Assembly: GCA_016234595.1 (NCBI GenBank)
Contig: JACRBG010000011.1
Coordinates: 37,227-101,226, forward strand
Direction: 5' to 3'
DNA length: 64,000 bases
From: Chloroflexota bacterium
Lineage (GTDB): Bacteria > Chloroflexota > Anaerolineae > Aggregatilineales > J027
The notes beneath the pieces were generated by a model. The model made no database searches. It was not told the DNA's origin and was given only the letters and a program-made list of their open reading frames with translations. Shown in pieces: positions 7,145 to 56,064 of the stretch; position 1 is the first letter of the stretch; each line of letters begins with the position of its first letter. The translations under genes and the position numbers were made by a program.

Positions 7145-7409
7145 GAAAGGTCTCTTGGGGGACTAAAAATAAAAAATTTAGGGTAAGGCAATTTCTGGCC
7201 CCGCCTCACGGTAAGTAGTCTAGCGTTTCCCTCTGCTGTTGGCAATTGAGGGGTTTGGTCGGTCATATCCCTATAGAATGTACGTTCTATTATTGATATT
7301 TATATGCGCCGGAGTTGAATTCGTAACTGTAGTTACGGATTTATGGATACTGGTTATATTTAGAAAGCAGGAAATGGCCGTTATTTATGGTATTGATTGG
7401 AGTGTGGCC

Positions 7410-8033
7410 GTGAAACTGAGAAATCTTTTGGGGTTGAGTGCGGTTCTGGTGTTTGTGGGGTTGGCCCAAATAATCTGGCGTAACCATGAGCCATTTTGGG
7501 ATAGAAGCCTGATGCTGGAGATACATCAACATCAGGCGGCGTGGCTGGACACGGTTATGAAAGGCATTACGCTGACGGGCAGTGGCTATTGTGTTGATCT
7601 TGTGGCTTTTGGAGTAGCGATGTGGTTGTGGTGGAAGGGGCAAGGGCACAAATTACAAGCGTTTATTTTACTTATCACGGTAGTGGGGCTAAGGATAGGT
7701 AATGGCTGGTTAAAGCAACTATTTGAGCGACCACGTCCTGAAGTTTTTCCACCCTTAACGACTGCCGGAGGATATAGTTTCCCAAGTGGACATACGATGA
7801 ACGCGATGGCATTTTATGGTCTTGTGGCGGTATGGTTATGGCGAACCCATTACCGAGGCTGGGCGATTGTCGCAGGAGCATGGGTGGTGATGGTGGCGAT
7901 CAGTCGGGTTTATTTAGGGGTGCATTATCCGAGTGATGTTATTGGGGCAATCGCGTTTGGGGCGATTTGGATTGTGGTTGTGACGACTGGGCAGGATATG
8001 TGGCAAAAACGGAATAATGAGGGTAAAGATTAA
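7410..8033 (+). CDS. PAP2 family phosphatase (membrane)
   Basis: KQLFERPRP, SFPSGH, SRVYLGVHYPSD; start uncertain (GTG 7410 with GGAG upstream). Confidence 0.9.
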   Translation: MKLRNLLGLSAVLVFVGLAQIIWRNHEPFWDRSLMLEIHQHQAAWLDTVMKGITLTGSGYCVDLVAFGVAMWLWWKGQGHKLQAFILLITVVGLRIGNGWLKQLFERPRPEVFPPLTTAGGYSFPSGHTMNAMAFYGLVAVWLWRTHYRGWAIVAGAWVVMVAISRVYLGVHYPSDVIGAIAFGAIWIVVVTTGQDMWQKRNNEGKD

Positions 8034-8073: not shown

Positions 8074-9222
8074 TTAGGCAACGGCGACCCGCTGCAAATT
8101 TTTGACGGCGATGGCAAGGGTCCGGATGGTTTCTTCAATATCGCGCTGAGTGGTGTGTGTGCCGACCGTCAAACGCAAACTGGCGGAGGCTAATTCGGGA
8201 GAATAACCCAGTGCCAATAGAACACTGGATGGGGCCTGACTGCCTGCTTTGCACGCCGATGCACCACTGGCTGCGATGCCCTTTTCATCGAGATAACTAA
8301 TCAAGAACGAACCATGAATTTCTTCAATCACGAAACTGGCATGGGAGGGCAAGCGATCATGGGGATGCCCGGTCAGAACCGCCCCCGGAATGGTATTGAG
8401 GACACCTTTAATTAGAGCATCACGCAAGGTTTGGAAATGGGCATTGCGGGTTTCCAATTCTTGATAGGCCAGTTCTAGTGCTTTTGCAAAACCAACAATA
8501 AGCGGGGTTGCGTGAGTGCCAGCGCGTAGACCGCGTTCGTGTCCGCCGCCTGTTTGGGCAGGGGCAATTTCGATGCCATCGCGGATATAGAGTGCGCCAA
8601 TGCCCTTTGGTCCATAGAATTTGTGGGCGGAGAGGCTCATTAAATCCACCCCCAGTTTTTGGACATCTAAAGAAAGCTGCCCAGCAGCTTGCACGGCATC
8701 AGTATGAAAAATGACACCGCGTTCGTGGGCAAGGTCGGCTAGTTGCGGGATGGGTTGAATCGTGCCGATTTCATTGTTGGCATACATCACACTCAACAAA
8801 GTGGTGTCGAGGCGTAAGGCATTGGAGACTTCATGGAGGGAAACTTTGCCGGTACTATCAATGGGGAGGATGCTGCATTCAAACCCCTGTGTATCGGCTA
8901 ATTGGGTAATGGTTTTGCCGACCGCACCATGTTCAATCGCGGTAGTTACGAGATGTTTGCCGCGTTTGCGCTGTGTCCACGCTACGCCACGTACCGCCAA
9001 ATTATCACTTTCCGAGCCACCACTGGTAAAAATGATTTCGTGGGGTTGGCAATTGAGCACCCCGGCGATGGTTTCACGCGCTTGTTCAATGGCGGATTGG
9101 GCTTGATGACCGATGCGGTGAGCCGAAGACGCATTGCCAAAAACAGTCGTGAAATAGGGCAGCATTGTTTCGACAACGCGCGGGTCGGTGGGGGTAGTTG
9201 CGGAATGATCGAGGTATATCAT
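8074..9222 (-). CDS. iscS: Cysteine desulfurase (IscS/NifS family)
   Basis: YLDHSATT, FGNASS, HTDAVQ, SAHKFYGPKG (PLP Lys), SGASAC catalytic Cys loop. Confidence 0.92.
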   Translation of the reverse strand: MIYLDHSATTPTDPRVVETMLPYFTTVFGNASSAHRIGHQAQSAIEQARETIAGVLNCQPHEIIFTSGGSESDNLAVRGVAWTQRKRGKHLVTTAIEHGAVGKTITQLADTQGFECSILPIDSTGKVSLHEVSNALRLDTTLLSVMYANNEIGTIQPIPQLADLAHERGVIFHTDAVQAAGQLSLDVQKLGVDLMSLSAHKFYGPKGIGALYIRDGIEIAPAQTGGGHERGLRAGTHATPLIVGFAKALELAYQELETRNAHFQTLRDALIKGVLNTIPGAVLTGHPHDRLPSHASFVIEEIHGSFLISYLDEKGIAASGASACKAGSQAPSSVLLALGYSPELASASLRLTVGTHTTQRDIEETIRTLAIAVKNLQRVAVA

Positions 9223-23721: not shown

Positions 23722-24188
23722 CTTTATGACCTCCTAAAAACTGTAACCTTTAATTTTTTCTCTTTTATATCATGCAACAAATTTACTGTCTTAGGCCTGC
23801 CAAACTTGTGCCATGTTGGAAATCTCATCCATATAGACCTATTTGGGTGGGTGGCATAGCTTGTTTATTGAGGATGAGAAAAAAAGTAGACGAGTGCCCA
23901 CAGTGAAACAGACCCTGAACCGCTAACACGCGCTCCCCATCAGGGTCTTGCCCACTTGTTAGAGTCAATAGCCTATCCACAACGATCACAATTGGAGATT
24001 TCGATAACGACTGCCTAGAGAGGGGTTTGGCAGGGAGAGTTTTGAATTCCCCCTGCACCATCTGAAGTCAGCCATTACCAGTGACTTCAATCGGTAGTGT
24101 ACCACACCTTTTGGTACAGCCGATTTTTGAAGGAATCACTGAAGGCAAATCGCAAGTGTATTCGGGGTTTACCATCAGGAGGATAGCT

Positions 24189-25019
24189 ATGACCCCAGTT
24201 TTTGTACTCACCAATCATAAGGGCGGCGTGGGGAAATCTACGTCCGCGACAAATATCGCGTTTGGCATCGCACAGATGCTGGCGCAGTTCGGCGTTGCCA
24301 ATCATCGGGTGCTGTTGATTGACACCGACAGTCAAGGGCACGCCACCCTCGTCACTACCAGTCGGAATGATTTCGGACGTGAGGATAGTCTGTATACCGT
24401 ACTCAATGCTGATCGCAAAGATGCCGCCACTGTATTGAAGCAATGTATTGTGGCAAGCGAATGGGACGCCGATTTGCATGTCCTCCCCGCCTCCCCACTA
24501 CTCGAAGCCGCCGAACGGGAATTAATCGCCGTGCCCGGTGCGCCCTACCGATTATCAGAACCCCTCGCTCAGCTTGCCAGTCACTATGCAGCCATCGTAA
24601 TTGACACCCGCCCTTCCTTCTCCCTACTCACTGAAATGAGTCTAATCGCCGCGACGGATGCGCTTATCCCAATTGAGCCGCGTTATCTAGAAACAGTCGG
24701 TTTGGAATCAGTGGTCAATAAGATTGAGTCCATTCGGCAGGGCTGGCGTTGTCCGGATTTGAAGGTGAGTGGCATCGTCGTCACCAAACTCGACAAACGC
24801 ATGAAGGGCCATGTCGAGATGGTCGAAAGCCTCAAAGCCCATCCGGTACTGGGGCGGTTGCTGTGTGGGGTCATTCCGGCCAACGAAGCAGTGGCCTATG
24901 CCCATCATGCCCATAAAAGCGTGTATGCGTACAACCCCGAATGTCCCGCCAGCCAAGCCTATGCGGTGTTGGCAGCCCGTCTCATCAAAAAAACAATGGC
25001 GATTAGGGGAGGTGCGTGA
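24189..25019 (+). CDS. parA: ParA family partition ATPase
   Basis: Deviant Walker A KGGVGKST, LIDTDSQG, VIDTRPS; ATG 24189 after AGGAGG. Confidence 0.93.
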   Translation: MTPVFVLTNHKGGVGKSTSATNIAFGIAQMLAQFGVANHRVLLIDTDSQGHATLVTTSRNDFGREDSLYTVLNADRKDAATVLKQCIVASEWDADLHVLPASPLLEAAERELIAVPGAPYRLSEPLAQLASHYAAIVIDTRPSFSLLTEMSLIAATDALIPIEPRYLETVGLESVVNKIESIRQGWRCPDLKVSGIVVTKLDKRMKGHVEMVESLKAHPVLGRLLCGVIPANEAVAYAHHAHKSVYAYNPECPASQAYAVLAARLIKKTMAIRGGA

Positions 25020-26224
25020 TGGCAAAAAAAGCCGATACTCCCAATCGGATTAATGCCCTGCTGCAAGATGTGGGGCAGATGATGATTTTGAATGCTGATC
25101 CCGCTGAACGGTTGGATGATAGTCAACTCCGTGTTGAAAACCTGCCCATCCAACTGGTGCGGCCTGATCCGGCCCAACCCCGGCGAGTGTTGCCCGAAGG
25201 GATTTACCAAGCGTTTCACCAAGAACACCTCACGCCGTATCAAGCCCTGAAGGAACTTGTTCAATTGGTGCAAATCGCGGCGCGGCAAAAGGGGCGACCC
25301 TTTACCCATGTGCTCGATTTACTGCCGAATCCGAATGACGAAACTGAGGCGGAAGTCACGACGACACTCTTGCCAGAGGAAACTCTGCTGCGGGATTTGG
25401 TCAACTTGGCCGTGACGATTCGGGATGATGGTCAGGTCAATCCGCTGACCGTGGTGGATAAATCCGAAGGGGTGAGCCACATCTATCAAATTGAGACAGG
25501 CGAACGGCGCTACTGGGCGACATGGCTGATGATGGAATTCCTACCGGGGTATCAAGGCAATGGTTCTATCCCTTGCATCATTGTCCCCTCCAATCGAGCC
25601 TCGGTTTTTCGTCAGGCTAAAGAGAACACCTCGCGGGCTGGTCTGAACGCCATTGCGATGGCACGGCAGGCGGCACTGTTGTTGTTAGCTGTACATGGTA
25701 TTGTGCCACCCCTTGAAGGGCCAATCTCCAACGATTTCTATCGTCTGGCTCTCGAATTTACCCTGAGAGATAAGCGCGACTATGCCAACGATATTCTTGC
25801 CGCGATGGGTGGAATTACCCGTAGCTACTTCAGCTACTACAAATCCTTGTTGCGCCTTTCTGATGACGCGCTGGAATTGGCGGATCGTAACAGCATTGAT
25901 GAAAAGAAACTCCGCTATGTTGTTTCACTGCCGGTGGAAGCTCAGGTTGAAATGGTGCGCCAGATCATAGACTTTGGCTTGACTAGTGCGCAGGTGAAAG
26001 AACTCTGCTCAGATGAAGCAGGGCTGGATAAGTCAGTGGATGATCAATCTCCTAAAAAAGCAAAGCAATTAATCAAACTCATCCGCGCCACAATGGACAC
26101 CACCCCAGCCCAATTTGCACAGGCTTTAGTTGATCAAGAAAAAACCGTGCACATGGCAAAAGCTCGCCTCAATGAGCTTCGTGAGCTGTTTGACGAGGTA
26201 GAGGAATTTCTGAGCAGGCAATAA
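25019..26224 (+). CDS. parB: ParB family partition protein (CTPase N-domain)
   Basis: VRPDPAQPRR, GQVNPLTV, IETGERRYWA (GxxR motif); coupled to the parA stop. Confidence 0.85.
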   Translation: MAKKADTPNRINALLQDVGQMMILNADPAERLDDSQLRVENLPIQLVRPDPAQPRRVLPEGIYQAFHQEHLTPYQALKELVQLVQIAARQKGRPFTHVLDLLPNPNDETEAEVTTTLLPEETLLRDLVNLAVTIRDDGQVNPLTVVDKSEGVSHIYQIETGERRYWATWLMMEFLPGYQGNGSIPCIIVPSNRASVFRQAKENTSRAGLNAIAMARQAALLLLAVHGIVPPLEGPISNDFYRLALEFTLRDKRDYANDILAAMGGITRSYFSYYKSLLRLSDDALELADRNSIDEKKLRYVVSLPVEAQVEMVRQIIDFGLTSAQVKELCSDEAGLDKSVDDQSPKKAKQLIKLIRATMDTTPAQFAQALVDQEKTVHMAKARLNELRELFDEVEEFLSRQ

Positions 26225-26248
26225 ATTGTTGACCCGGGTCAACAATTT
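26223..26248. promoter_or_regulatory. Perfect 26-bp palindrome, candidate parS centromere
   Basis: aaattgttgacccgggtcaacaattt, no spacer, directly at the parB stop codon. Confidence 0.7.
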
Positions 26249-26261
26249 TGAGGAGCAACCC

Positions 26262-26366
26262 ATGACTAACCGATCACGTGACCCGCCGAAAAAAGAAAAA
26301 CCGCCTTACCAGTTAGGGCAGGCGGACAGGTCAGGTCAATCAATTAATCAAAATCAATTGCAATAA
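26262..26366 (+). CDS. 34-aa leader ORF upstream of the replication protein
   Basis: GAGGAG RBS at about 26250-26255; MTNRSRDPPKKEKPPYQLGQADRSGQSINQNQLQ*. Confidence 0.5.
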   Translation: MTNRSRDPPKKEKPPYQLGQADRSGQSINQNQLQ

Positions 26367-26375
26367 ACCGTAGCA
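26288..26375 (-). ncRNA. Predicted counter-transcribed antisense RNA (ctRNA-like, about 85 nt)
   Basis: Minus-strand promoter TTGCAG-N17-TACAAT and terminator CCGCCU-N13-AGGCGG-UUUUUCUUUUUU. Confidence 0.65.
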
Positions 26376-26381
26376 TGTTTC

Positions 26382-26410
26382 ATTGTAATTGGTTCGTGAC
26401 CTGTCTGCAA
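26382..26410 (-). promoter_or_regulatory. sigma70-type promoter of the antisense RNA
   Basis: -35 TTGCAG (26410-26405), 17-nt spacer, -10 TACAAT (26387-26382). Confidence 0.65.
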
Positions 26411-26465
26411 GCACCGTCAACCACTATTTGACATTTGAAAACTTAACCCGGACAGGAGCAACACT

Positions 26466-28814
26466 ATGGCTAGTGTGTCACAGGAATCGCTGATCGTTCA
26501 GGCCGCCCAATCCAGTAGCCTCTTGGATGCGGCATTGATGTATGCTCGTTTAGGGATGAGTGTTATCCCCCTGAAAGGGAAACGCCCTTCACTGTCTAGT
26601 TGGACGCAACTTCAACAAGTTCGCGCCGATGCCGTTGTAATTCATCGCTGGCAGCGGAATGGGCTGCTGCATAACGTGGGCATCGTCTGTGGAGCAGCCT
26701 CACAAAATCTGGTTGTTTTGGATACCGATGGTGCAGCCAGCTATCCAGCTTTTGCTGCTATGTTCCCTAAACTAGCGGAGACCTATACCGTTGCGACGGG
26801 CAGCGGCAAAGGCCACCACGTCTATTTCTATGTGGAAAAACTGCCTGAGAGTATCAAGGCTATGGGTCTGCCGATTGGCAATCTTGAATTGTGCGCGAAT
26901 GGGCGACAGGTGGTCGCTCCGCCAAGTTTGCATCCAATCACGGGTAACCCCTATCGGGTGCATAAGGCCTTGGATATTCTGCGGGTCGAAACGCTTAATG
27001 AATTGGCTGAGTGGATTAAGTCGTTCAAGGCCAAACCTGCGTTTGCACCAGTCCACTTTTTGCCAGTGTCACCACATGATTCTGCCAAATTGAATCCAAA
27101 GGTAATGGAGGAAATTGAACGACATTTTCTGCGACAGGGGTATCGAGAAGTCGGCGAATGGCTGCATGGGCCGTGTATTTATCCCCATCGGCATCAGCAT
27201 GGCGACCGCAACCCTTCCTTTGGATTCAATCGCTTCAGCGGATTTGGCTCGTGTTTTGTGTGTGGCACGATTCTGGCGAAAGACATCTGTGCAGCGGTTG
27301 GGATTGATGTCAGTGTGCTAGGCGGGTTGGTGGAAAAGTCTTTTAACACCAACCCCCATCACCAGCCCACAGCCGTTAGGCTGTCTTTACCACCTACGGA
27401 ACCTCCGATTCCAAGTGAAACCAAGCTATCTAGTATTGCATTGCCACCAAGCACCCCGCCACCTTCTGAACCGAGTCAGGGATTTGCGATGAATGATCTC
27501 AAACTCCCAGAGTGGCTCAAACTCTATGTGGAATGGGCCGGGGCGACGGGTAATCAGACACCGTTATCTTTCCATCTTGCGGCGGGATTGTGGCTGTTGT
27601 CGGTCGCGGTGGGGCGACGTTTGTATGGTGCTGCCCCTTGGGGAGTGAAGATTTTCCCCAATCTGTATTTGATGCTCATCGCGGCGACGACCTATTATCG
27701 CAAATCCACCGCTTATAAATTGGCGGAGGGCATCGCACATGAGGCCATTCCACATATGCTCATGCCAACACCGGGTTCACCCGAACGTTTTCAAGAGGCT
27801 CTGGCGGGCCAACTACCGGGTAATTTTGACAAGCTCAATCCAACCGAACAAGAACTTTTTCGCAAGGCACAGCCGTTTGCAGCCCAGCGCGGGTTGCTTA
27901 AGGATGAGGTCGCTGGATTATTTGGGGTCATCAACAAGCGGGATTATATGGTCGGCATGAAAGATTTGTTGATGGAACTCTATGACTGCCCTGATCGCTC
28001 TAGTAAAGAAACACAGGCGGGAGTCACGATTGTTGAGAAGGCGGCTTTATCCATCTTGGGCGTGACGACTCCGGCAGGTTTGGCGGCTGGGGTGAGTGAG
28101 GCGGATTGGGCGAATGGCTTGCTGGTACGCTTTGCCTTGATTACACCTGAAACAGATTATGCCGAGCGCCCCGCAGCCATCGCCTTTCAGTCACCACCAC
28201 CGAAGCTCATTGAGGGCTTACGTCGTTTACACGAGCGCCTGCCAAATCCTGTCCGGACAGAACGCGGATTGACCCCACCGAGTGCCCTGCAATTGGATGT
28301 CACCTGCTGGCGTGAATGTCAAAATTATGGCGATCATCTGCGCCGCCTGTGTGCACCGCAGCAAGACACTGAATTAGATGAGCGACTCAAGGGCGTCTAT
28401 GGGCGGCTGCATGTCCAAGCCTTCAAACTTGCTACCCTGATGGCTGCCTTAGATTGGCTAGATACCGACACCTCGGCGCCAACACTCACAGTTGACCATT
28501 GGGTGATGGGGGAGACTATGGCTGAAACATGGCGTATGAGCGCTCATCGTTTGCTTGAACAAATGGATCGGCGGGGTGAGGCTAGTCATGAACGTCGCCA
28601 GCAAGATACATTGTTACGGGCGATTCGACAGGCAGGGGCTGAAGGGGCGAGTCTACGGGTGTTATATCGTAATCTCCACCTGACTGCCCAACGTGCGCGA
28701 TTGTTGGCCCAAGAATTAGCGCGTGCAGGCTTGGTGGTGGAACGGCGTTTTAGTGGCATTGAGTGGTATGTTGCTAGTGAATATGCCACAGATGAGACTC
28801 CTGCCATCGGGTGA
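26466..28814 (+). CDS. Putative replication initiator: bifunctional primase-polymerase + Zn-binding domain + DUF3987/YfjI-like NTPase + winged helix
   Basis: N-term LGMSVIPLK, NVGIVCG, LVVLDTD, TGSGKGHHVYF, QVVAPPSLH; CIYPHRH...DRNPSF...CFVC; NLYLMLIA....RKST and GLLKDE. Confidence 0.82.
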   Translation: MASVSQESLIVQAAQSSSLLDAALMYARLGMSVIPLKGKRPSLSSWTQLQQVRADAVVIHRWQRNGLLHNVGIVCGAASQNLVVLDTDGAASYPAFAAMFPKLAETYTVATGSGKGHHVYFYVEKLPESIKAMGLPIGNLELCANGRQVVAPPSLHPITGNPYRVHKALDILRVETLNELAEWIKSFKAKPAFAPVHFLPVSPHDSAKLNPKVMEEIERHFLRQGYREVGEWLHGPCIYPHRHQHGDRNPSFGFNRFSGFGSCFVCGTILAKDICAAVGIDVSVLGGLVEKSFNTNPHHQPTAVRLSLPPTEPPIPSETKLSSIALPPSTPPPSEPSQGFAMNDLKLPEWLKLYVEWAGATGNQTPLSFHLAAGLWLLSVAVGRRLYGAAPWGVKIFPNLYLMLIAATTYYRKSTAYKLAEGIAHEAIPHMLMPTPGSPERFQEALAGQLPGNFDKLNPTEQELFRKAQPFAAQRGLLKDEVAGLFGVINKRDYMVGMKDLLMELYDCPDRSSKETQAGVTIVEKAALSILGVTTPAGLAAGVSEADWANGLLVRFALITPETDYAERPAAIAFQSPPPKLIEGLRRLHERLPNPVRTERGLTPPSALQLDVTCWRECQNYGDHLRRLCAPQQDTELDERLKGVYGRLHVQAFKLATLMAALDWLDTDTSAPTLTVDHWVMGETMAETWRMSAHRLLEQMDRRGEASHERRQQDTLLRAIRQAGAEGASLRVLYRNLHLTAQRARLLAQELARAGLVVERRFSGIEWYVASEYATDETPAIG

Positions 28815-28816
28815 AT

Positions 28817-29003
28817 GCGACAAATGCGACACACGCGACATGCGACAGTGCGACAGCGATAAAAAATATGGCTTTGGCTATTATCATGCTCACGGCGTTT
28901 TCCGGAATGACACTGAAGAAAATGCTATGAAGCACCATAAGTCTATATCGCTATGAGATATATTTGTCGCGCTGTCACGTGTCGCATCTGTCGCGTTTGT
29001 CGC
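28817..29003. repeat. Two inverted arrays of GCGACA hexamers, candidate replication origin
   Basis: GCGACA at 28817, 28826, 28835, 28842, 28850; TGTCGC at 28965, 28980, 28989, 28998 and TGTCAC at 28973; about 110-bp spacer. Confidence 0.75.
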
Positions 29004-29091
29004 ATAAATTTGAGGGCCACATGGAAAGGTTAGTAAGGACGAGTATAATCAGCAGGTCAGTTTGGCTGGCTCACGAAAAGGGGCATTTTTT

Positions 29092-30042
29092 ATGACAGTT
29101 TCATTGGTTACAGGCGGCGCTGGCTTCATCGGTTCGCATCTTGTTGAGGCCCTGCTTGCTGAAGGGCATGAAGTACGTGTGGTGGATAATTTTGCTACAG
29201 GCAAGCGCGAGAACTTATACCCATCCATAAACAAGATCAAGTTATACGAAATTAGCATTACCAATGCTGCTGCGCTTCAAGAAGCGATGGAAGGAGTCAA
29301 TTACGTTTTCCATCAAGCTGCTATCCCATCTGTGCCGCGTTCGGTGGCTGACCCAGTCACTTGCCATGAGGTCAATGTAACGGGGACATTCAATGTGTTG
29401 AATGCCGCACGATTGGCAGGTGTCAAGCGAGTAGTCTATGCCGCGTCGTCATCAGCGTATGGCGATATTGAGGGTGATTATAAACAGGAAGATATGGCCC
29501 CGCGACCATTATCCCCCTATGGTGCGGCAAAATTGGCGGGTGAATATTATCTGCAGGTGTTTTATCGGGTATATGGCTTAGAGACTGTCAGCCTGCGCTA
29601 TTTTAATGTTTTTGGCCCACGCCAAGATCCTAACTCTGAATATGCGGCGGTCATCCCTAAATTTGCAACTGCGATGCTAGAAGGCCAGTCTCCCACGATT
29701 CATGGTGACGGTACGCAATCTCGTGATTTCACCTATATTGAAAATACGGTAAAAGGCAATCTACTGGCTGCAAAGAGCCCACATGCTCCGGGGCAGGTCA
29801 TTAATTTGGCCTGTGGGCAGCGCTACACATTGTTGGATTTGGTGAACGCGATTAACGATTATCTTGGCACGAATATTAGGCCGACATTTGCTCCAGCCCG
29901 TACAGGTGATATTAAGCATTCGCTCGCGGATATTTCGAAGGCGGAAGAATTATTGGGTTACGCCCCTGCAACACTGTTTAAAGACGGCGTATCGAACACA
30001 GTGGACTGGTTTGCCGCGCAACCCAAGAAGGAACAGAGTTAA
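29092..30042 (+). CDS. NAD-dependent epimerase/dehydratase (extended SDR, WbpP/GalE-like)
   Basis: VTGGAGFIG, YGAAK, YFNVFGPRQ. Confidence 0.93.
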   Translation: MTVSLVTGGAGFIGSHLVEALLAEGHEVRVVDNFATGKRENLYPSINKIKLYEISITNAAALQEAMEGVNYVFHQAAIPSVPRSVADPVTCHEVNVTGTFNVLNAARLAGVKRVVYAASSSAYGDIEGDYKQEDMAPRPLSPYGAAKLAGEYYLQVFYRVYGLETVSLRYFNVFGPRQDPNSEYAAVIPKFATAMLEGQSPTIHGDGTQSRDFTYIENTVKGNLLAAKSPHAPGQVINLACGQRYTLLDLVNAINDYLGTNIRPTFAPARTGDIKHSLADISKAEELLGYAPATLFKDGVSNTVDWFAAQPKKEQS

Positions 30043-30050
30043 ATCACCGA

Positions 30051-31370
30051 TTACAAACTAACGATGTGCGAATATTGAGGGAAACGGCGGGTAGCATTGC
30101 GGGTATCCACAATCAGCGGGCTATGCTTCACAATGGTCTCCCAATCGTAGGCGGTATGATCGGTCACGATCACCAAACAGTCCAATGATTTAAGCCATTC
30201 AGCCGAAAATGGAGTGGACTGCGAAACCTCATTATTCTCTAATCGGATGCTTGGGACATGGGGATCATTCCACTCAACCTCGGCCCCTTTTTCAGTGAGT
30301 AAATGGATAATGTCCAGTGCTGGACTCTCACGCACATCATCAATATCACGTTTATAGGCGACGCCCAGCACCCCAATGCGTGAGGATCGAATCGGCTTAA
30401 CGACGTTGTTTAATGCCTCCGCTACTTTGTTTACCACATAGAAAGGCATATAGGTATTGATCTCGCTGGCAAGTTCAATGAATCGGGCATTATAGTTCAG
30501 AGCCTTAAGTTTCCAGCTTAGATAGTGAGGGTCAACCGGGATGCAATGCCCACCGAGGCCCGGCCCCGGATAAAATGGCATAAATCCAAAGGGTTTGCTC
30601 TTAGCTGCCTCAATAATTTCCCACACATCCAGATTTAGCTTATCGCACATCAGGGCCATTTCATTAACCAGTCCGATATTCACCGCTCGGAAGGTGTTTT
30701 CAAGTAACTTTACCATTTCGGCGGCGGTGGGGGACGAGACTTTAACGACTTTTTCCACGATAGTTTGGTAATAAGCTGTCACGATTTCGGTACAGGCTGG
30801 GGTTATACCACCCACGACCTTGGGCGTGTTGTAGACGGTGTATTTTTCATTGCCCGGATCAATGCGTTCCGGCGAAAATGAGACAAACACATCCTGCCCA
30901 ACCGTGAATCCGCGTCTTTCAATCTCTGGGGCAACAATTTCTTCGGTTGTTCCGGGGTAGGTGGTGCTTTCTAGAACGATGAGCATTCCGGCGTGGCAGA
31001 TTTGCGCCACATTGGTAGTGGCATCCAAGACGAAGGACATGTCAGGGTCTTTGGTTTTGCGAAGAGGTGTGGGTACACAGATGCTCACTGCGTCGGCGGT
31101 TTCAAGGGCGCGATAATCCGTAAAGGCTTGTAATTTGCCGTTTCTGACTAGCGGGGCTAATTGGCTGGTTGGAATGTCGGGAATATAGCTTTCACCCGAG
31201 TTGAGTTTATTGACCTTCCATTCTGAAAGATCAATGCCAATCACTCTAAACCCAGCCTCAGCAAATGCTACTGCCAATGGCAATCCTACGTAACCCAAGC
31301 CGACAATACCAACGATGGCTGTGCCTTCGTTAAATCGAGATAATAATTGCTGACGATAATCGGTACCCAT
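30051..31370 (-). CDS. UDP-sugar 6-dehydrogenase (WbpA/TviB-like, UDP-GlcNAc type)
   Basis: GLGYVG, ICVPTP, ESTTYPGTT, GGHCIPVDP, DVRESP. Confidence 0.93.
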   Translation of the reverse strand: MGTDYRQQLLSRFNEGTAIVGIVGLGYVGLPLAVAFAEAGFRVIGIDLSEWKVNKLNSGESYIPDIPTSQLAPLVRNGKLQAFTDYRALETADAVSICVPTPLRKTKDPDMSFVLDATTNVAQICHAGMLIVLESTTYPGTTEEIVAPEIERRGFTVGQDVFVSFSPERIDPGNEKYTVYNTPKVVGGITPACTEIVTAYYQTIVEKVVKVSSPTAAEMVKLLENTFRAVNIGLVNEMALMCDKLNLDVWEIIEAAKSKPFGFMPFYPGPGLGGHCIPVDPHYLSWKLKALNYNARFIELASEINTYMPFYVVNKVAEALNNVVKPIRSSRIGVLGVAYKRDIDDVRESPALDIIHLLTEKGAEVEWNDPHVPSIRLENNEVSQSTPFSAEWLKSLDCLVIVTDHTAYDWETIVKHSPLIVDTRNATRRFPQYSHIVSL

Positions 31371-31418
31371 CAAACCTATCTCCCATCTTTTGCAGATACT
31401 CTCATGAATAGTTGATCT

Positions 31419-36346: not shown

Positions 36347-38065
36347 ATGGAGCTTACTCAATACATTCGTCTTTTCAGAAAGTGGTTATGGCTTATTCTT
36401 TTGGTAGCGTTTTTGGGTGGAAGTAGTAGCTTTATCTTCCGCAGCCGCCAAGAAAAAACCTATCAGGCACAAGCCACCATTTTTGTTGGTAGTTTCCGCG
36501 AAGACCCCAATCCGGGTAGTGGTGAAATTAACACAGGTACCCAACTGGCAACGACCTATGCAGCGTTAGCCACGACCTATAGCATTGCCCAAGCTGCGGT
36601 CGAGGCTGGAGGATTTCCAATTTCTCCTGATGGCCTGCGCGGCAGTATTACGACCAGCATTGTTCCTGATACCTCTCTTTTGGTTTTGAGTGTTACCTAT
36701 ACCGACCCTATCTTAGCTGCGGATATGGCGAATCAGGTTGCAGAACAGCTTATTCTGAATAGCCCAACAAATTTGACATCCGACCAGCAAAGCCAACTTG
36801 ATTTAGCCAACGCTGAAATATCACGGCTGACAGGTGAGCTTGAAAAAGCCCGTCAAGACTTGAATGTGATAGATGGTCAAATATCAACTGCAACTGATCC
36901 TGAGGAAATTCAAAGTTTAACTGATCGTCGGGACACGTTAGTAGCCCAAATTACCGATATTTCTTCAACCATTGCGCAATATTCTAGTACCGTCGAGAAT
37001 TTGCGTCGGCGGACCAATTCCCTCGAAATCATTGAGCGGGCACGTGTACCTAGTAGCCCCACTGGTACAGGAACACTTCAAGTTACTTTACTTGGTGCAA
37101 TGGTAGGAGCAGCTTTGGCTTTTGGGGCAGTTCTACTCATTGAATATTTGAATGACACCATTAAAGTGCCGGAGGAAGTAACCCAACTTATATCCGTGCC
37201 AGTTTTAGGGACAATTTTTCGGTTTGGGAAATCGAGCGAAGGCTATTCAAAACGCTTGATTACGTATTTACAGCCGAACTCACCTGTCTCAGAAAGTTAT
37301 CGTTCTCTCCGCACAAACCTCCTCTATACTGCACAAAATGGCTCAAAACAAGCCTATATTGTGACGAGCCCCGGCCCAGAGGAGGGCAAGTCTGTTACTG
37401 CTGCCAACCTAGCTGTGGTGATGGCAACTGCCGGACTACAAGTATTGTTGGTAGATGCAGATTTGCGCCGACCCAAAGTTCATGAAATCTTCGATTTGAA
37501 GAACGAAATTGGTTTAACGACGCTGTTGTTCGCCGATCCAACAAATCCCTCAAAACCTTCAGACGTAGATGCTGAAAAGAGTAACGCCGAATTCGCTACA
37601 CGGTTACGTCAATGTATTCAAAGCACATCTATCCCACGCCTGCGTGTCATCACTAGTGGTTTTATTCCCTCTAATCCCGCAGAAATTTTGGGATCGGCTT
37701 TGATGAAACGTTGGTTTGATCTCTTTCAATCTTCTACCAATATTGATGTTATAATATTCGATACACCACCTGTGTTGGTGGTAGCAGATAGTGCCGTTTT
37801 AGCTGCGACTATCAATGTTCCAATTTTGCTGGTTCTCCAAGCAGGGCGAACACGCCGGGGTGCAGCCTTACGCACTAAGGCACAACTGGATACGTTGGGA
37901 GCCGAGTTGGTGGGGGTTTCGTTGAATCAACTGAATCCTGCCGAACAAAATTATGGCTATGGCTATGGTGGTGGCTATTACTACTACTATGCCAACTCCG
38001 AAAACGGACAAGGTCAACTTTCGGCGTGGAGGCGTCTAGTCAATCGTTTTAAAAAGCCCAATTAG
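36347..38065 (+). CDS. Polysaccharide co-polymerase / tyrosine autokinase (Wzc/CapB-like)
   Basis: Wzz-like N-term, SPGPEEGKS, DADLRRP, IFDTPP, Tyr cluster YGYGYGGGYYYYY. Confidence 0.93.
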   Translation: MELTQYIRLFRKWLWLILLVAFLGGSSSFIFRSRQEKTYQAQATIFVGSFREDPNPGSGEINTGTQLATTYAALATTYSIAQAAVEAGGFPISPDGLRGSITTSIVPDTSLLVLSVTYTDPILAADMANQVAEQLILNSPTNLTSDQQSQLDLANAEISRLTGELEKARQDLNVIDGQISTATDPEEIQSLTDRRDTLVAQITDISSTIAQYSSTVENLRRRTNSLEIIERARVPSSPTGTGTLQVTLLGAMVGAALAFGAVLLIEYLNDTIKVPEEVTQLISVPVLGTIFRFGKSSEGYSKRLITYLQPNSPVSESYRSLRTNLLYTAQNGSKQAYIVTSPGPEEGKSVTAANLAVVMATAGLQVLLVDADLRRPKVHEIFDLKNEIGLTTLLFADPTNPSKPSDVDAEKSNAEFATRLRQCIQSTSIPRLRVITSGFIPSNPAEILGSALMKRWFDLFQSSTNIDVIIFDTPPVLVVADSAVLAATINVPILLVLQAGRTRRGAALRTKAQLDTLGAELVGVSLNQLNPAEQNYGYGYGGGYYYYYANSENGQGQLSAWRRLVNRFKKPN

Positions 38066-55404: not shown

Positions 55405-56064
55405 ATGGATCAGTCTATTGTTCAACGAGAAATTGTTGTTCAAGATCTCACTCAAATTGCTATTGTACACCAAGCGGCATTCCCAGATAGTGCCCTAACC
55501 GGATTAGGTCGCCAAACGATTCAACGTTACTACTATTGGCTGTTGTCAGGCTCACACCCCCTAATAATTGCACGTGGAGTTGAGGTGGATGGTAAAATAG
55601 CGGGTTTTATTTTTGCAGGCAAATTTCAGGGGGCGACCACAGGATTTGTTTTGCGAAACAAGTTTTTTCTTGCTTTTTCTGTTTTTTTCCACATTGGCTT
55701 GCTTCGTAAACCGATTTTCCGCCGACGGCTGCGGACGGGATTAAGGCTGTTGCGCTATCGGTTACTAAAAAAACCCTTGCCTCGAGCAGAAATATCAGGT
55801 CATCCTGAATCATTAAAATTTATGCACATTCCATATTGCAGTGTCCTAGCCATCGCTGTTGACCCAAATCAACAACGTGAAGGATTGGGATGGTCTTTGA
55901 TGAAGTACGTAGAGAGAATAGCTCACGAAAAGCATTATTTACAAATGCGTTTAACTGTTTTTGAGCACAACAAATCGGCAATCCAGTTTTATCAGAAGCA
56001 TGGGTATCAAGTATTTTATCAAGATGGAGAATATCTTGTTTTAGGTAAAAACTTGGTACACTAA
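55405..56064 (+). CDS. GNAT family N-acetyltransferase
   Basis: LAIAVDPNQQREGLG, FYQKHGY. Confidence 0.85.
   Translation: MDQSIVQREIVVQDLTQIAIVHQAAFPDSALTGLGRQTIQRYYYWLLSGSHPLIIARGVEVDGKIAGFIFAGKFQGATTGFVLRNKFFLAFSVFFHIGLLRKPIFRRRLRTGLRLLRYRLLKKPLPRAEISGHPESLKFMHIPYCSVLAIAVDPNQQREGLGWSLMKYVERIAHEKHYLQMRLTVFEHNKSAIQFYQKHGYQVFYQDGEYLVLGKNLVH

Follow-up and report, generated by a model that had tools for sequence, protein, structure and literature searches.

A diversified palindrome at the parB stop codon in Anaerolineae is probably a parS-type site of the adjacent ParB

Introduction

What reads a perfect 26-bp palindrome that starts within the stop codon of a parB gene? The question is raised by a 64,000-nt stretch of DNA (the window) from a Chloroflexota bacterium of the Anaerolineae (Aggregatilineales; J027; assembly GCA_016234595.1, contig JACRBG010000011.1, forward strand, positions 37,227 to 101,226; C57:37227-101226 in our contig numbering), which carries, in this order, parA, parB, the palindrome, a short leader open reading frame (ORF), a primase-helicase gene and iterons. 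The initial annotation of the window had taken the palindrome for a protein site and a candidate parS with a new ParB specificity. Comparison of homologous loci now makes it very likely that the palindrome is the cognate double-stranded, parS-type site of the ParB encoded just upstream. With somewhat less confidence, we also consider it likely that the bases of the site follow, in a nearly code-like way, from the residues at five positions of the protein, in a family of 78 or more half-site specificities whose half-sites each have an extra base pair.

Sequence and position of the palindrome

The palindrome, AAATTGTTGACCCGGGTCAACAATTT, is self-complementary throughout, without mismatches and without a loop, and lies exactly where the initial annotation had placed it, at 26223-26248 of the window. 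Its dyad falls between 26235 and 26236, its first two nucleotides are the last two of the TAA stop codon of parB (26222-26224), and A/T flanks enclose a core (26226-26245) that reads TTGTTGACCC on one side of the dyad and GGGTCAACAA on the other. The span of 18 rather than 16 bp from TGTT to AACA and the CCCGGG core, both reported in the annotation, were confirmed.

The genome assembly (5.2 Mb, 59 contigs, 97% complete) was obtained from reads of groundwater metagenomes. Homologs of its ParB place the organism in the Chloroflexota, class Anaerolineae, close to Aggregatilineales. It contains only three loopless perfect palindromes of at least 26 bp, about 0.08 being expected under a uniform base model (5.2e6 x 4^-13). 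The annotation had proposed a scan for more copies of the site; with up to three mismatches, no second copy of the 26-mer was found in the 64-kb window or in 100 shuffles of it, and no further copy of the 20-mer core with fewer than four mismatches was found in the whole genome. The two nearest look-alikes, at window positions 55856-55875 (four mismatches, within an ORF of 235 aa) and at C25:137116, were judged to be chance matches because both lie inside ORFs and lack the arms. Neither the canonical parS (TGTTTCACGTGAAACA) nor the Noc-binding site (NBS; TATTTCCCGGGAAATA) was found in the genome with at most one mismatch.

Other long loopless perfect palindromes of this genome are located at C26:21157-21186, C46:17838-17861 and C56:29910-29939. 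Two of these sequences, ATAAATCCGTTACCATGGTAACGGATTTAT (30 bp) and AATCCGTTACCATGGTAACGGATT (24 bp), share an identical 24-bp core on two contigs, and GGTAAGAGTGATTGATCAATCACTCTTACC is a further palindrome of 30 bp; all three are probably sites of other dimeric DNA-binding proteins.

Conservation and symmetry among homologous loci

Homologous loci were collected first from species-representative genomes (80 loci) and then from metagenomes (another 80, of which 77 were usable). A palindrome of the same build was found at the parB stop codon in 78 of the 80 genome loci and 75 of the 77 metagenome loci (153/157), its dyad usually lying 10-14 nt past the stop. Among these sites there were 130 unique 28-mers and 78 distinct 10-nt half-sites, so the position is conserved and the sequence is diversified between loci. 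With site positions numbered from the dyad outward, every site has T7, nearly all have G8, C3 and C1 (the central CpG), variation occurs at positions 2, 4, 5, 6, 9 and 10, and positions 11-13 are A-rich. In 19 genomes of the family, all matches to the 20-mer with at most two mismatches adjoin a parB homolog, and the near-match variants differ by symmetric double substitutions. Within about 5 kb on either side of the other loci, a second match to the locus's own site was found at L004 only.

The two halves of the site change together as far in as the second base from the dyad. Position 2 is Watson-Crick symmetric in 125 of the 130 unique sites, although the base itself varies (C in 59, G in 37, A in 32), and the corresponding count for position 1 is 104 of 130. 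If the sequence folded into an RNA hairpin or a cruciform, the position-2 pair would have to close a loop of two nucleotides, which is impossible; selection therefore acts on duplex DNA, and the symmetry points to a dimer, itself symmetric, as the reader of the site. At position 1, T·G accounts for 13 of the 26 asymmetric central pairs, that is, C-to-T on one strand of the central CpG, the pattern expected from deamination of methylated cytosine in cores of the CCGG or CCCGGG type.

Covariation of the site with ParB

The comparison of the helix-turn-helix residues of ParB with palindrome variants, which the annotation had recommended, revealed near-deterministic covariation at residues equivalent to known DNA contacts. 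We calculated the mutual information (MI) between each variable site position and every column of the ParB alignment. Position 2 was coupled to K296 (normalised MI 0.98), position 4 to Y273 (0.96), position 6 to S269 (0.83), position 9 to R268 (0.69), and position 5 to both S269 (0.68) and T267 (0.64); the runner-up ParB columns did not exceed 0.51, and the columns of ParA, which has the same phylogeny as ParB, did not exceed 0.47.

According to the ungapped alignment with Spo0J and the numbering of PMC7383237, residues T267, R268, S269, Y273, K296 and R299 correspond to S172, R173, S174, N178, G201 and R204 of Caulobacter ParB, and S172, R173, N178, G201 and R204 are listed among the parS-contacting residues of that protein (PMC7383237). 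The same study described a specificity switch in which G201 goes with A6 of parS and R201 with C6 of NBS (Jalal et al. 2020, PMC7383237).

Contingency tables of 155 loci gave simple rules. At position 2, Gly goes with A (41/41 loci), Lys, Arg or Ser with C (67/68), and Tyr or Phe with G (41/41); this rule repeats the published G201-A/R201-C switch and adds to it a class of aromatic residues with G. At position 4, Arg goes with C (55/58), His, Tyr or Gln with A (64/68), and Glu, Ala, Leu or Thr with G (29/29). Lys goes with G (76/82) and Arg with T (63/66) at position 9, and Met with A (39/40) and Arg or Lys with C (10/10) at position 6.

These associations recur independently. When the helix-turn-helix columns were left out of the ParB tree, at least 18 changes of position 2 could be counted on it; among pairs that are independent by phylogeny, the rules held for A with Gly in 6/6, for G with Tyr or Phe in 8/8 and for C with Lys or Arg in 9-10 of 10 at position 2, for C with Arg in 10/10 at position 4, and for G with Lys in 8-9 of 9 at position 9. 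When the rules derived from the first 80 loci were applied to the metagenome loci, position 2 was predicted correctly in 72 of 73 cases, position 4 in 56 (six wrong) and position 9 in 69 (three wrong); for half-sites absent from the training set, position 2 was right in 39 of 40 cases. Thus the divergent specificity proposed by the initial annotation is supported by covariation, but the single new class is not, the loci forming a large family with at least 78 half-sites.

Several individual loci can be read against these rules. Two of them, L003 (6206-6290) and L004 (4734-4810), have a second palindrome about 50 bp further 3'. The ParB of L003 agrees with just the site next to the stop codon (His with A at position 4); the other palindrome of this locus looks like those that go with Arg-type ParBs, and could be a remnant or of foreign origin. 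In a genome of the same genus, two modules (G002:C4:88415-93031 and 109657-114258; L082 and L083) lie 21 kb apart, on either side of an ORF of 3216 aa. They share 84-85% DNA identity, except for the 3' half of parB and the site, which fail to align, as if the part that sets specificity had been swapped as a cassette. The rules hold for copy 2 (Phe with G, Arg with C, Lys with G); copy 1 has an odd helix-turn-helix, with Leu at the R173 equivalent, and no clear palindrome.

The ParB protein

The protein encoded by parB has the motifs QPRR (box I), GERRYWA (arginine patch) and KENTSR (box III-like), all invariant in 25 homologs, so that box I, the GERR patch and ENxxR of an N-terminal CTP domain are recognizable at the level of motifs and model. 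A ParB-type helix-turn-helix, GGITRSYFSYYKSLLRL, precedes the sequence EKKLR, the counterpart of GHAR in the alignment; the domain passes Pfam HTH_ParB with 26.9 bits (cut-off 22.6), and the profile alignment to Thermus Spo0J (1vz0; GKARSTVANALRLL...AGHAR) is ungapped over the helix-turn-helix and the GHAR helix. The best NCBIfam match of the DNA-binding region is the Noc model (4.9e-11). Since curated whole-protein ParB models miss the protein, we assign it, on its sequence, to a divergent ParB subfamily; a genome-wide search with PF02195 at E<=0.001 misses it as well.

With the AF2 model of ParB (pLDDT 72.7), the top 37 matches found by Foldseek in the PDB were all ParB, Noc or KorB. They include the CTP- or CDP-bound ParB structures 7bnk and 6sdk, the structures 6t1f, 4umk and 6y93, and KorB (8qa8, 8qa9). 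Compared with Spo0J and ParB, the protein has an insertion of about 60 residues (approximately residues 60-125; window 25190-25390), located between box I (QPRR) and the helix before the GERR strand and including an acidic loop modeled with low confidence.

Neighboring genes and the candidate origin

The features around the palindrome are listed in Table 1. A longer reading of parA starts with GTG at 24081. The ParA protein matches Pfam AAA_31 (1.8e-31) and CbiA (4.5e-16), and its match to NCBIfam ParA_partition (2.1e-19) is under the cut-off of that model. As in ParABS systems, a Walker-type ParA ATPase is thus encoded next to ParB: the TGA stop codon of parA and the ATG of parB overlap by 1 nt, and ParA is found immediately 5' of parB in nearly all homologous loci with the upstream DNA covered. 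On the other side, the Shine-Dalgarno sequence of the leader ORF begins 2 nt past the palindrome, and a GGAG-like motif follows the palindrome in most loci.

Table 1. Features of the module, with positions in the 64,000-nt window.
Feature	Position	Strand	Basis
parA, deviant Walker-A ATPase (KGGVGKS), 276 aa from ATG	24189..25019	+	Pfam AAA_31, CbiA
parB, divergent ParB-family protein, 401 aa	25019..26224	+	Pfam HTH_ParB, ParB_N; fold
Recognition-helix codons T267-Y273	25817..25837	+	top MI with site positions; Spo0J alignment
Codon K296, equivalent of Caulobacter ParB G201 and Noc R201	25904..25906	+	MI 0.98 with site position 2
26-bp perfect palindrome, candidate parS	26223-26248	.	presence, uniqueness, conserved position, symmetry, covariation
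Shine-Dalgarno sequence GAGGAG of leader ORF	26250..26255	+	read from sequence
Leader mini-ORF (MTNRSRDPPKKEKPP...), 34 codons, R-x-P-P motif	26262..26366	+	recurrence in homologous loci
rep, primase-polymerase + DUF3987 helicase-type replication protein, 782 aa	26466..28814	+	Pfam
Mirror-image iteron arrays, candidate origin	28817..29003	.	repeat pattern, conservation in relatives

The Rep protein combines Pfam Prim-Pol (1.7e-23) and DUF3987 (3.4e-11). One or more replication-like genes occupy the rep position in seven of the eight other loci sampled, the types found being Zn-ribbon proteins (in most cases with Toprim), DUF3987 and AAA_25. Directly after the rep stop codon, five GCGACA iterons and five inverted ones (TGTCGC or TGTCAC) are separated by an AT-rich spacer of about 110 bp. 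The GCGACA arrays are kept in close relatives (L005, 8802-8960; L002, 8805-8960), and the more distant modules L003 (about 8860-8920) and L004 (about 7375-7435) have mirror arrays of CCGACA and TGTCGG instead. Judged by its repeats, the field is a candidate origin whose repeat appears to change along with the Rep protein.

The leader mini-ORF

A mini-ORF 3' of the palindrome was found in 73 of 80 and 66 of 69 loci (139/149). It starts 9-16 nt past the palindrome, behind a GGAG ribosome-binding site, follows the pattern M-x(2-6)-R-[A/S/G/D]-P-P, and usually has 8-12 codons, versus 34 in our module. Of the 139 motifs, 62 are RAPP, 47 RSPP, 17 RGPP, nine RDPP and four RPPP, and in 84 cases the ORF stops directly after the motif; our module has RDPP, at 26277-26288. 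RAPP and RGPP are known ribosome-arrest motifs, reported 5' of sec, yidC, TonB-receptor and copper genes (PMC10951233, PMC12992588). Unlike the cases in these two papers, the ORFs described here are tiny, lack a signal peptide and precede a replication initiator. By analogy, the mini-ORF may be a translational-arrest leader that controls rep.

Distribution of the module

The module is patchily distributed: 21 of 41 relatives have it, with 0-5 copies per genome, and the sites of co-resident copies differ in 49 of 50 pairs. Their mean number of differences per half-site (3.94) does not exceed that of random pairs (4.07). A tblastn search with ParB found no match among annotated plasmids (PLSDB), a scan of viral contigs (IMG/VR) found no relative of the module, and our literature searches found no description of it. 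The sampled flanks are mostly ordinary cellular genes, such as those for GlnRS, GlmS and a P-type ATPase. A 7.5-kb unit (23895-31391), consisting of the module, an epimerase and a UDP-sugar dehydrogenase gene, is shared within the genus, and its left flank lies elsewhere in the relatives. From this arrangement the module looks like a self-contained replicon cassette embedded in chromosomes.

Two other interpretations of the module were rejected. An origin-proximal chromosomal partition system does not agree with the position of dnaA, which is on another contig in our genome and distant in near-complete relatives; and for an integrative element, a large serine recombinase gene lies 5' of parA in just 2-3 of the 80 loci. 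A serine recombinase gene of our genome (C25:120654-122336) encodes a protein 41% identical to the one adjoining parA in L057. The same genome has a parA fragment (C20:150416-150679; 88 aa aligned, 83% identical), as well as another PrimPol/DUF3987 gene (C25:169497-171659; 59% identity) that lacks an adjacent parAB; they look like remnants or partial copies of further modules.

Canonical ParB (TIGR00180 above the cut-off) was found in only three of the 41 genomes of this Anaerolineae order. Given this, and given that canonical parS and NBS were not found in our 97%-complete genome, chromosome segregation in these Anaerolineae apparently proceeds without a standard ParABS system.

Comparison with known systems

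The module shares with chromosomal ParB/Spo0J systems the ParB fold, an N-terminal domain resembling the CTP pocket, the helix-turn-helix and a parA gene directly upstream, and its site shares with chromosomal parS the loopless palindrome, the central CpG and the C-N-C/G-N-G core (the slash marks the dyad). As with G201 in chromosomal ParB, its equivalent here would read the second base from the dyad, and the Gly members of our family have CACGTG cores like parS. The palindrome nevertheless does not match the canonical 16-bp consensus. In parS (T8 G7 T6 T5 T4 C3 A2 C1) the conserved GT is at positions 7-6, whereas here it is at 8-7; the longer spacing noticed in the initial annotation thus extends, with GT one base pair further out, across the whole family. 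Of the TGTT...AACA likeness to parS which the annotation had pointed out, G8/T7 and the C-N-C/G-N-G core hold family-wide, and the rest does not. The protein also differs, having about 400 aa, some 60 of them inserted in the N-terminal domain, and a score under the NCBIfam ParB cut-off, and so does the arrangement: chromosomal parS sites cluster near oriC, whereas here there is a single site at the parB stop codon of an accessory, patchy, multi-copy module.

The CCCGGG core, combined with a basic residue (K296 here, R201 in Noc), is also found in the Noc/NBS system (PMC7383237). The core is the only common part of the sites: our palindrome departs from the NBS consensus in the outer half-site and in spacing, the module pairs ParB with ParA, a partner that Noc lacks, and with a replication gene, and the host belongs to Chloroflexota, not Bacillota. 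Signs of membrane targeting were not seen, no search having been aimed at them.

In the Bsr partition families of Burkholderiales secondary replicons, co-resident ParABs have their own palindromic parS each, with a central CG, and specificities have diverged as they have here, presumably against incompatibility (PMC5450999). The Bsr sites are 16 bp long, fall into a handful of families and are present several times on each replicon (PMC5450999); the sites described here have a core of 18-20 bp, come in 78 or more half-site variants, occur once per module and show a legible code from residue to base. RK2 KorB shows that a ParB-family CTPase can also regulate transcription. Its operator OB is a 13-bp site, TTTAGC(G/C)GCTAAA, present in multiple promoters, and it has KorA as a partner; our module has one site, and the likeness to KorB that was observed is one of fold.

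A centromere directly 3' of parB is the classical plasmid arrangement, exemplified by P1 parS and F sopC. P1 parABS and F sopABC resemble our module in this respect, but their centromeres are composite or repeated, and their large ParA proteins have an N-terminal helix-turn-helix. Taken together, the sequence comparisons support a new ParB/parS variant with one extra base pair per half-site.

Proposed function and alternatives

If the palindrome is the parS-type site of the adjacent ParB, we infer the following sequence of events, in which physical binding, CTP dependence, ParA-driven partition and a regulatory effect are all conditional. A ParB dimer would set one helix-turn-helix on each half-site of 10-13 bp, with T267, R268, S269, Y273 and, at the start of the next helix, K296 reading positions 5, 9, 6, 4 and 2, respectively. 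By analogy with known ParBs, CTP-dependent clamp closure and sliding from the single site may follow, which we think likely because the CTP-pocket motifs QPRR, GERRYWA and ENxxR are kept. The adjacent ParA ATPase would then move the ParB-DNA complex and so partition the DNA molecule that bears the module. Because parB is followed by the site and then by the leader and rep, and a promoter would not fit in between, ParB bound to the site or sliding from it may in addition dampen transcription that reads through into rep, much as proteins of the KorB type act as transcriptional regulators. Diversified sites would keep co-resident modules from cross-talk.

Several observations weigh against this interpretation. 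There is one site per module, so a role in spreading and partition is assumed by analogy. Near-complete genomes carry the modules in their main chromosomes, on the same contig as dnaA but far away from it, so that it is not obvious what ParB partitions. The protein passes Pfam ParB_N marginally (26.4 bits, cut-off 26.3) and stays below the cut-off of NCBIfam parB_part (TIGR00180; 26.7 bits, cut-off 58.45). Finally, the dyads were picked by maximal symmetry, which slightly inflates the symmetry counts; the register itself is fixed independently by the invariance of G8, T7 and C3.

Alternatively, the ParB-bound site might act mainly as an operator or roadblock, as in KorB, regulating or silencing the leader and rep rather than serving as a centromere. 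The exact placement of the site before the ribosome-binding site of the leader, where there is no space for a promoter, would suit such a role, as would the single site per module, the embedding in chromosomes, a setting with no obvious need to partition a separate replicon, and the KorB structures among the fold matches. The coupling of ParA to ParB in nearly all loci with upstream coverage, which is a signature of partition, and the classical place of plasmid centromeres right after parB argue against it. We regard a mainly regulatory site as improbable but worth keeping in mind, and the two roles are mutually compatible.

It is far less probable that the palindrome is an RNA hairpin that terminates, attenuates, stabilizes or processes the parAB transcript, the DNA symmetry being a by-product. 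The element does lie at a gene end, its arms change in a compensatory fashion across loci, and the RNA could form a stem of 11 bp with a CCGG loop followed by UUUU, which is a further point against a DNA site. However, a hairpin leaves positions 1 and 2 unpairable and so does not explain their symmetry, nor can it account for the covariation with the helix-turn-helix residues of ParB. Among the mismatches at positions 3-10, G·T makes up only three of 22, so that pairs of the G·U type are not enriched. The palindrome does not qualify as an intrinsic terminator (a GC-rich stem, a loop of 3-8 nt and at least five U in eight), the T-run after it has 3-4 residues, partly within the palindrome itself, and a scan for terminators and promoters called nothing at the palindrome. 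The 101 nt around the site fold no more stably than shuffled sequences (z = 0.41), and because a ribosome-binding site and a mini-ORF follow within 9-16 nt, transcripts must pass through the site. The preference of the initial annotation for a protein site over a terminator is therefore upheld by the position-2 symmetry, the negative terminator scan, the short T-run and the covariation with ParB; a secondary RNA-level role may exist and would be minor.

Least probable of all is that a different protein encoded in the module binds here, for instance the Rep primase-helicase at an origin, or that the palindrome is a recombination or nick site: the rep gene is close by and origins contain palindromes, but the architecture of the site stays constant while the Rep type varies (PrimPol with DUF3987, Zn-ribbon with Toprim, AAA_25), a separate iteron field after rep covaries between elements, and the site covaries with ParB and not ParA columns.

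Significance

ParB-parS is the main DNA-segregation system of bacteria, and work on the diversification of its specificity has relied largely on a single engineered pair, ParB and Noc. The family of a parS-type site and its ParB described here would represent a natural experiment in the evolution of specificity, with new residue-base pairings and a different half-site spacing beyond the G201/R201 rule. If binding is confirmed, it would offer dozens of orthogonal ParB/parS pairs for the labeling of DNA loci and for the design of synthetic plasmid compatibility. It also draws attention to an accessory replicon module that is widespread, though undescribed, in Anaerolineae, a group in which most chromosomes are without canonical ParB.

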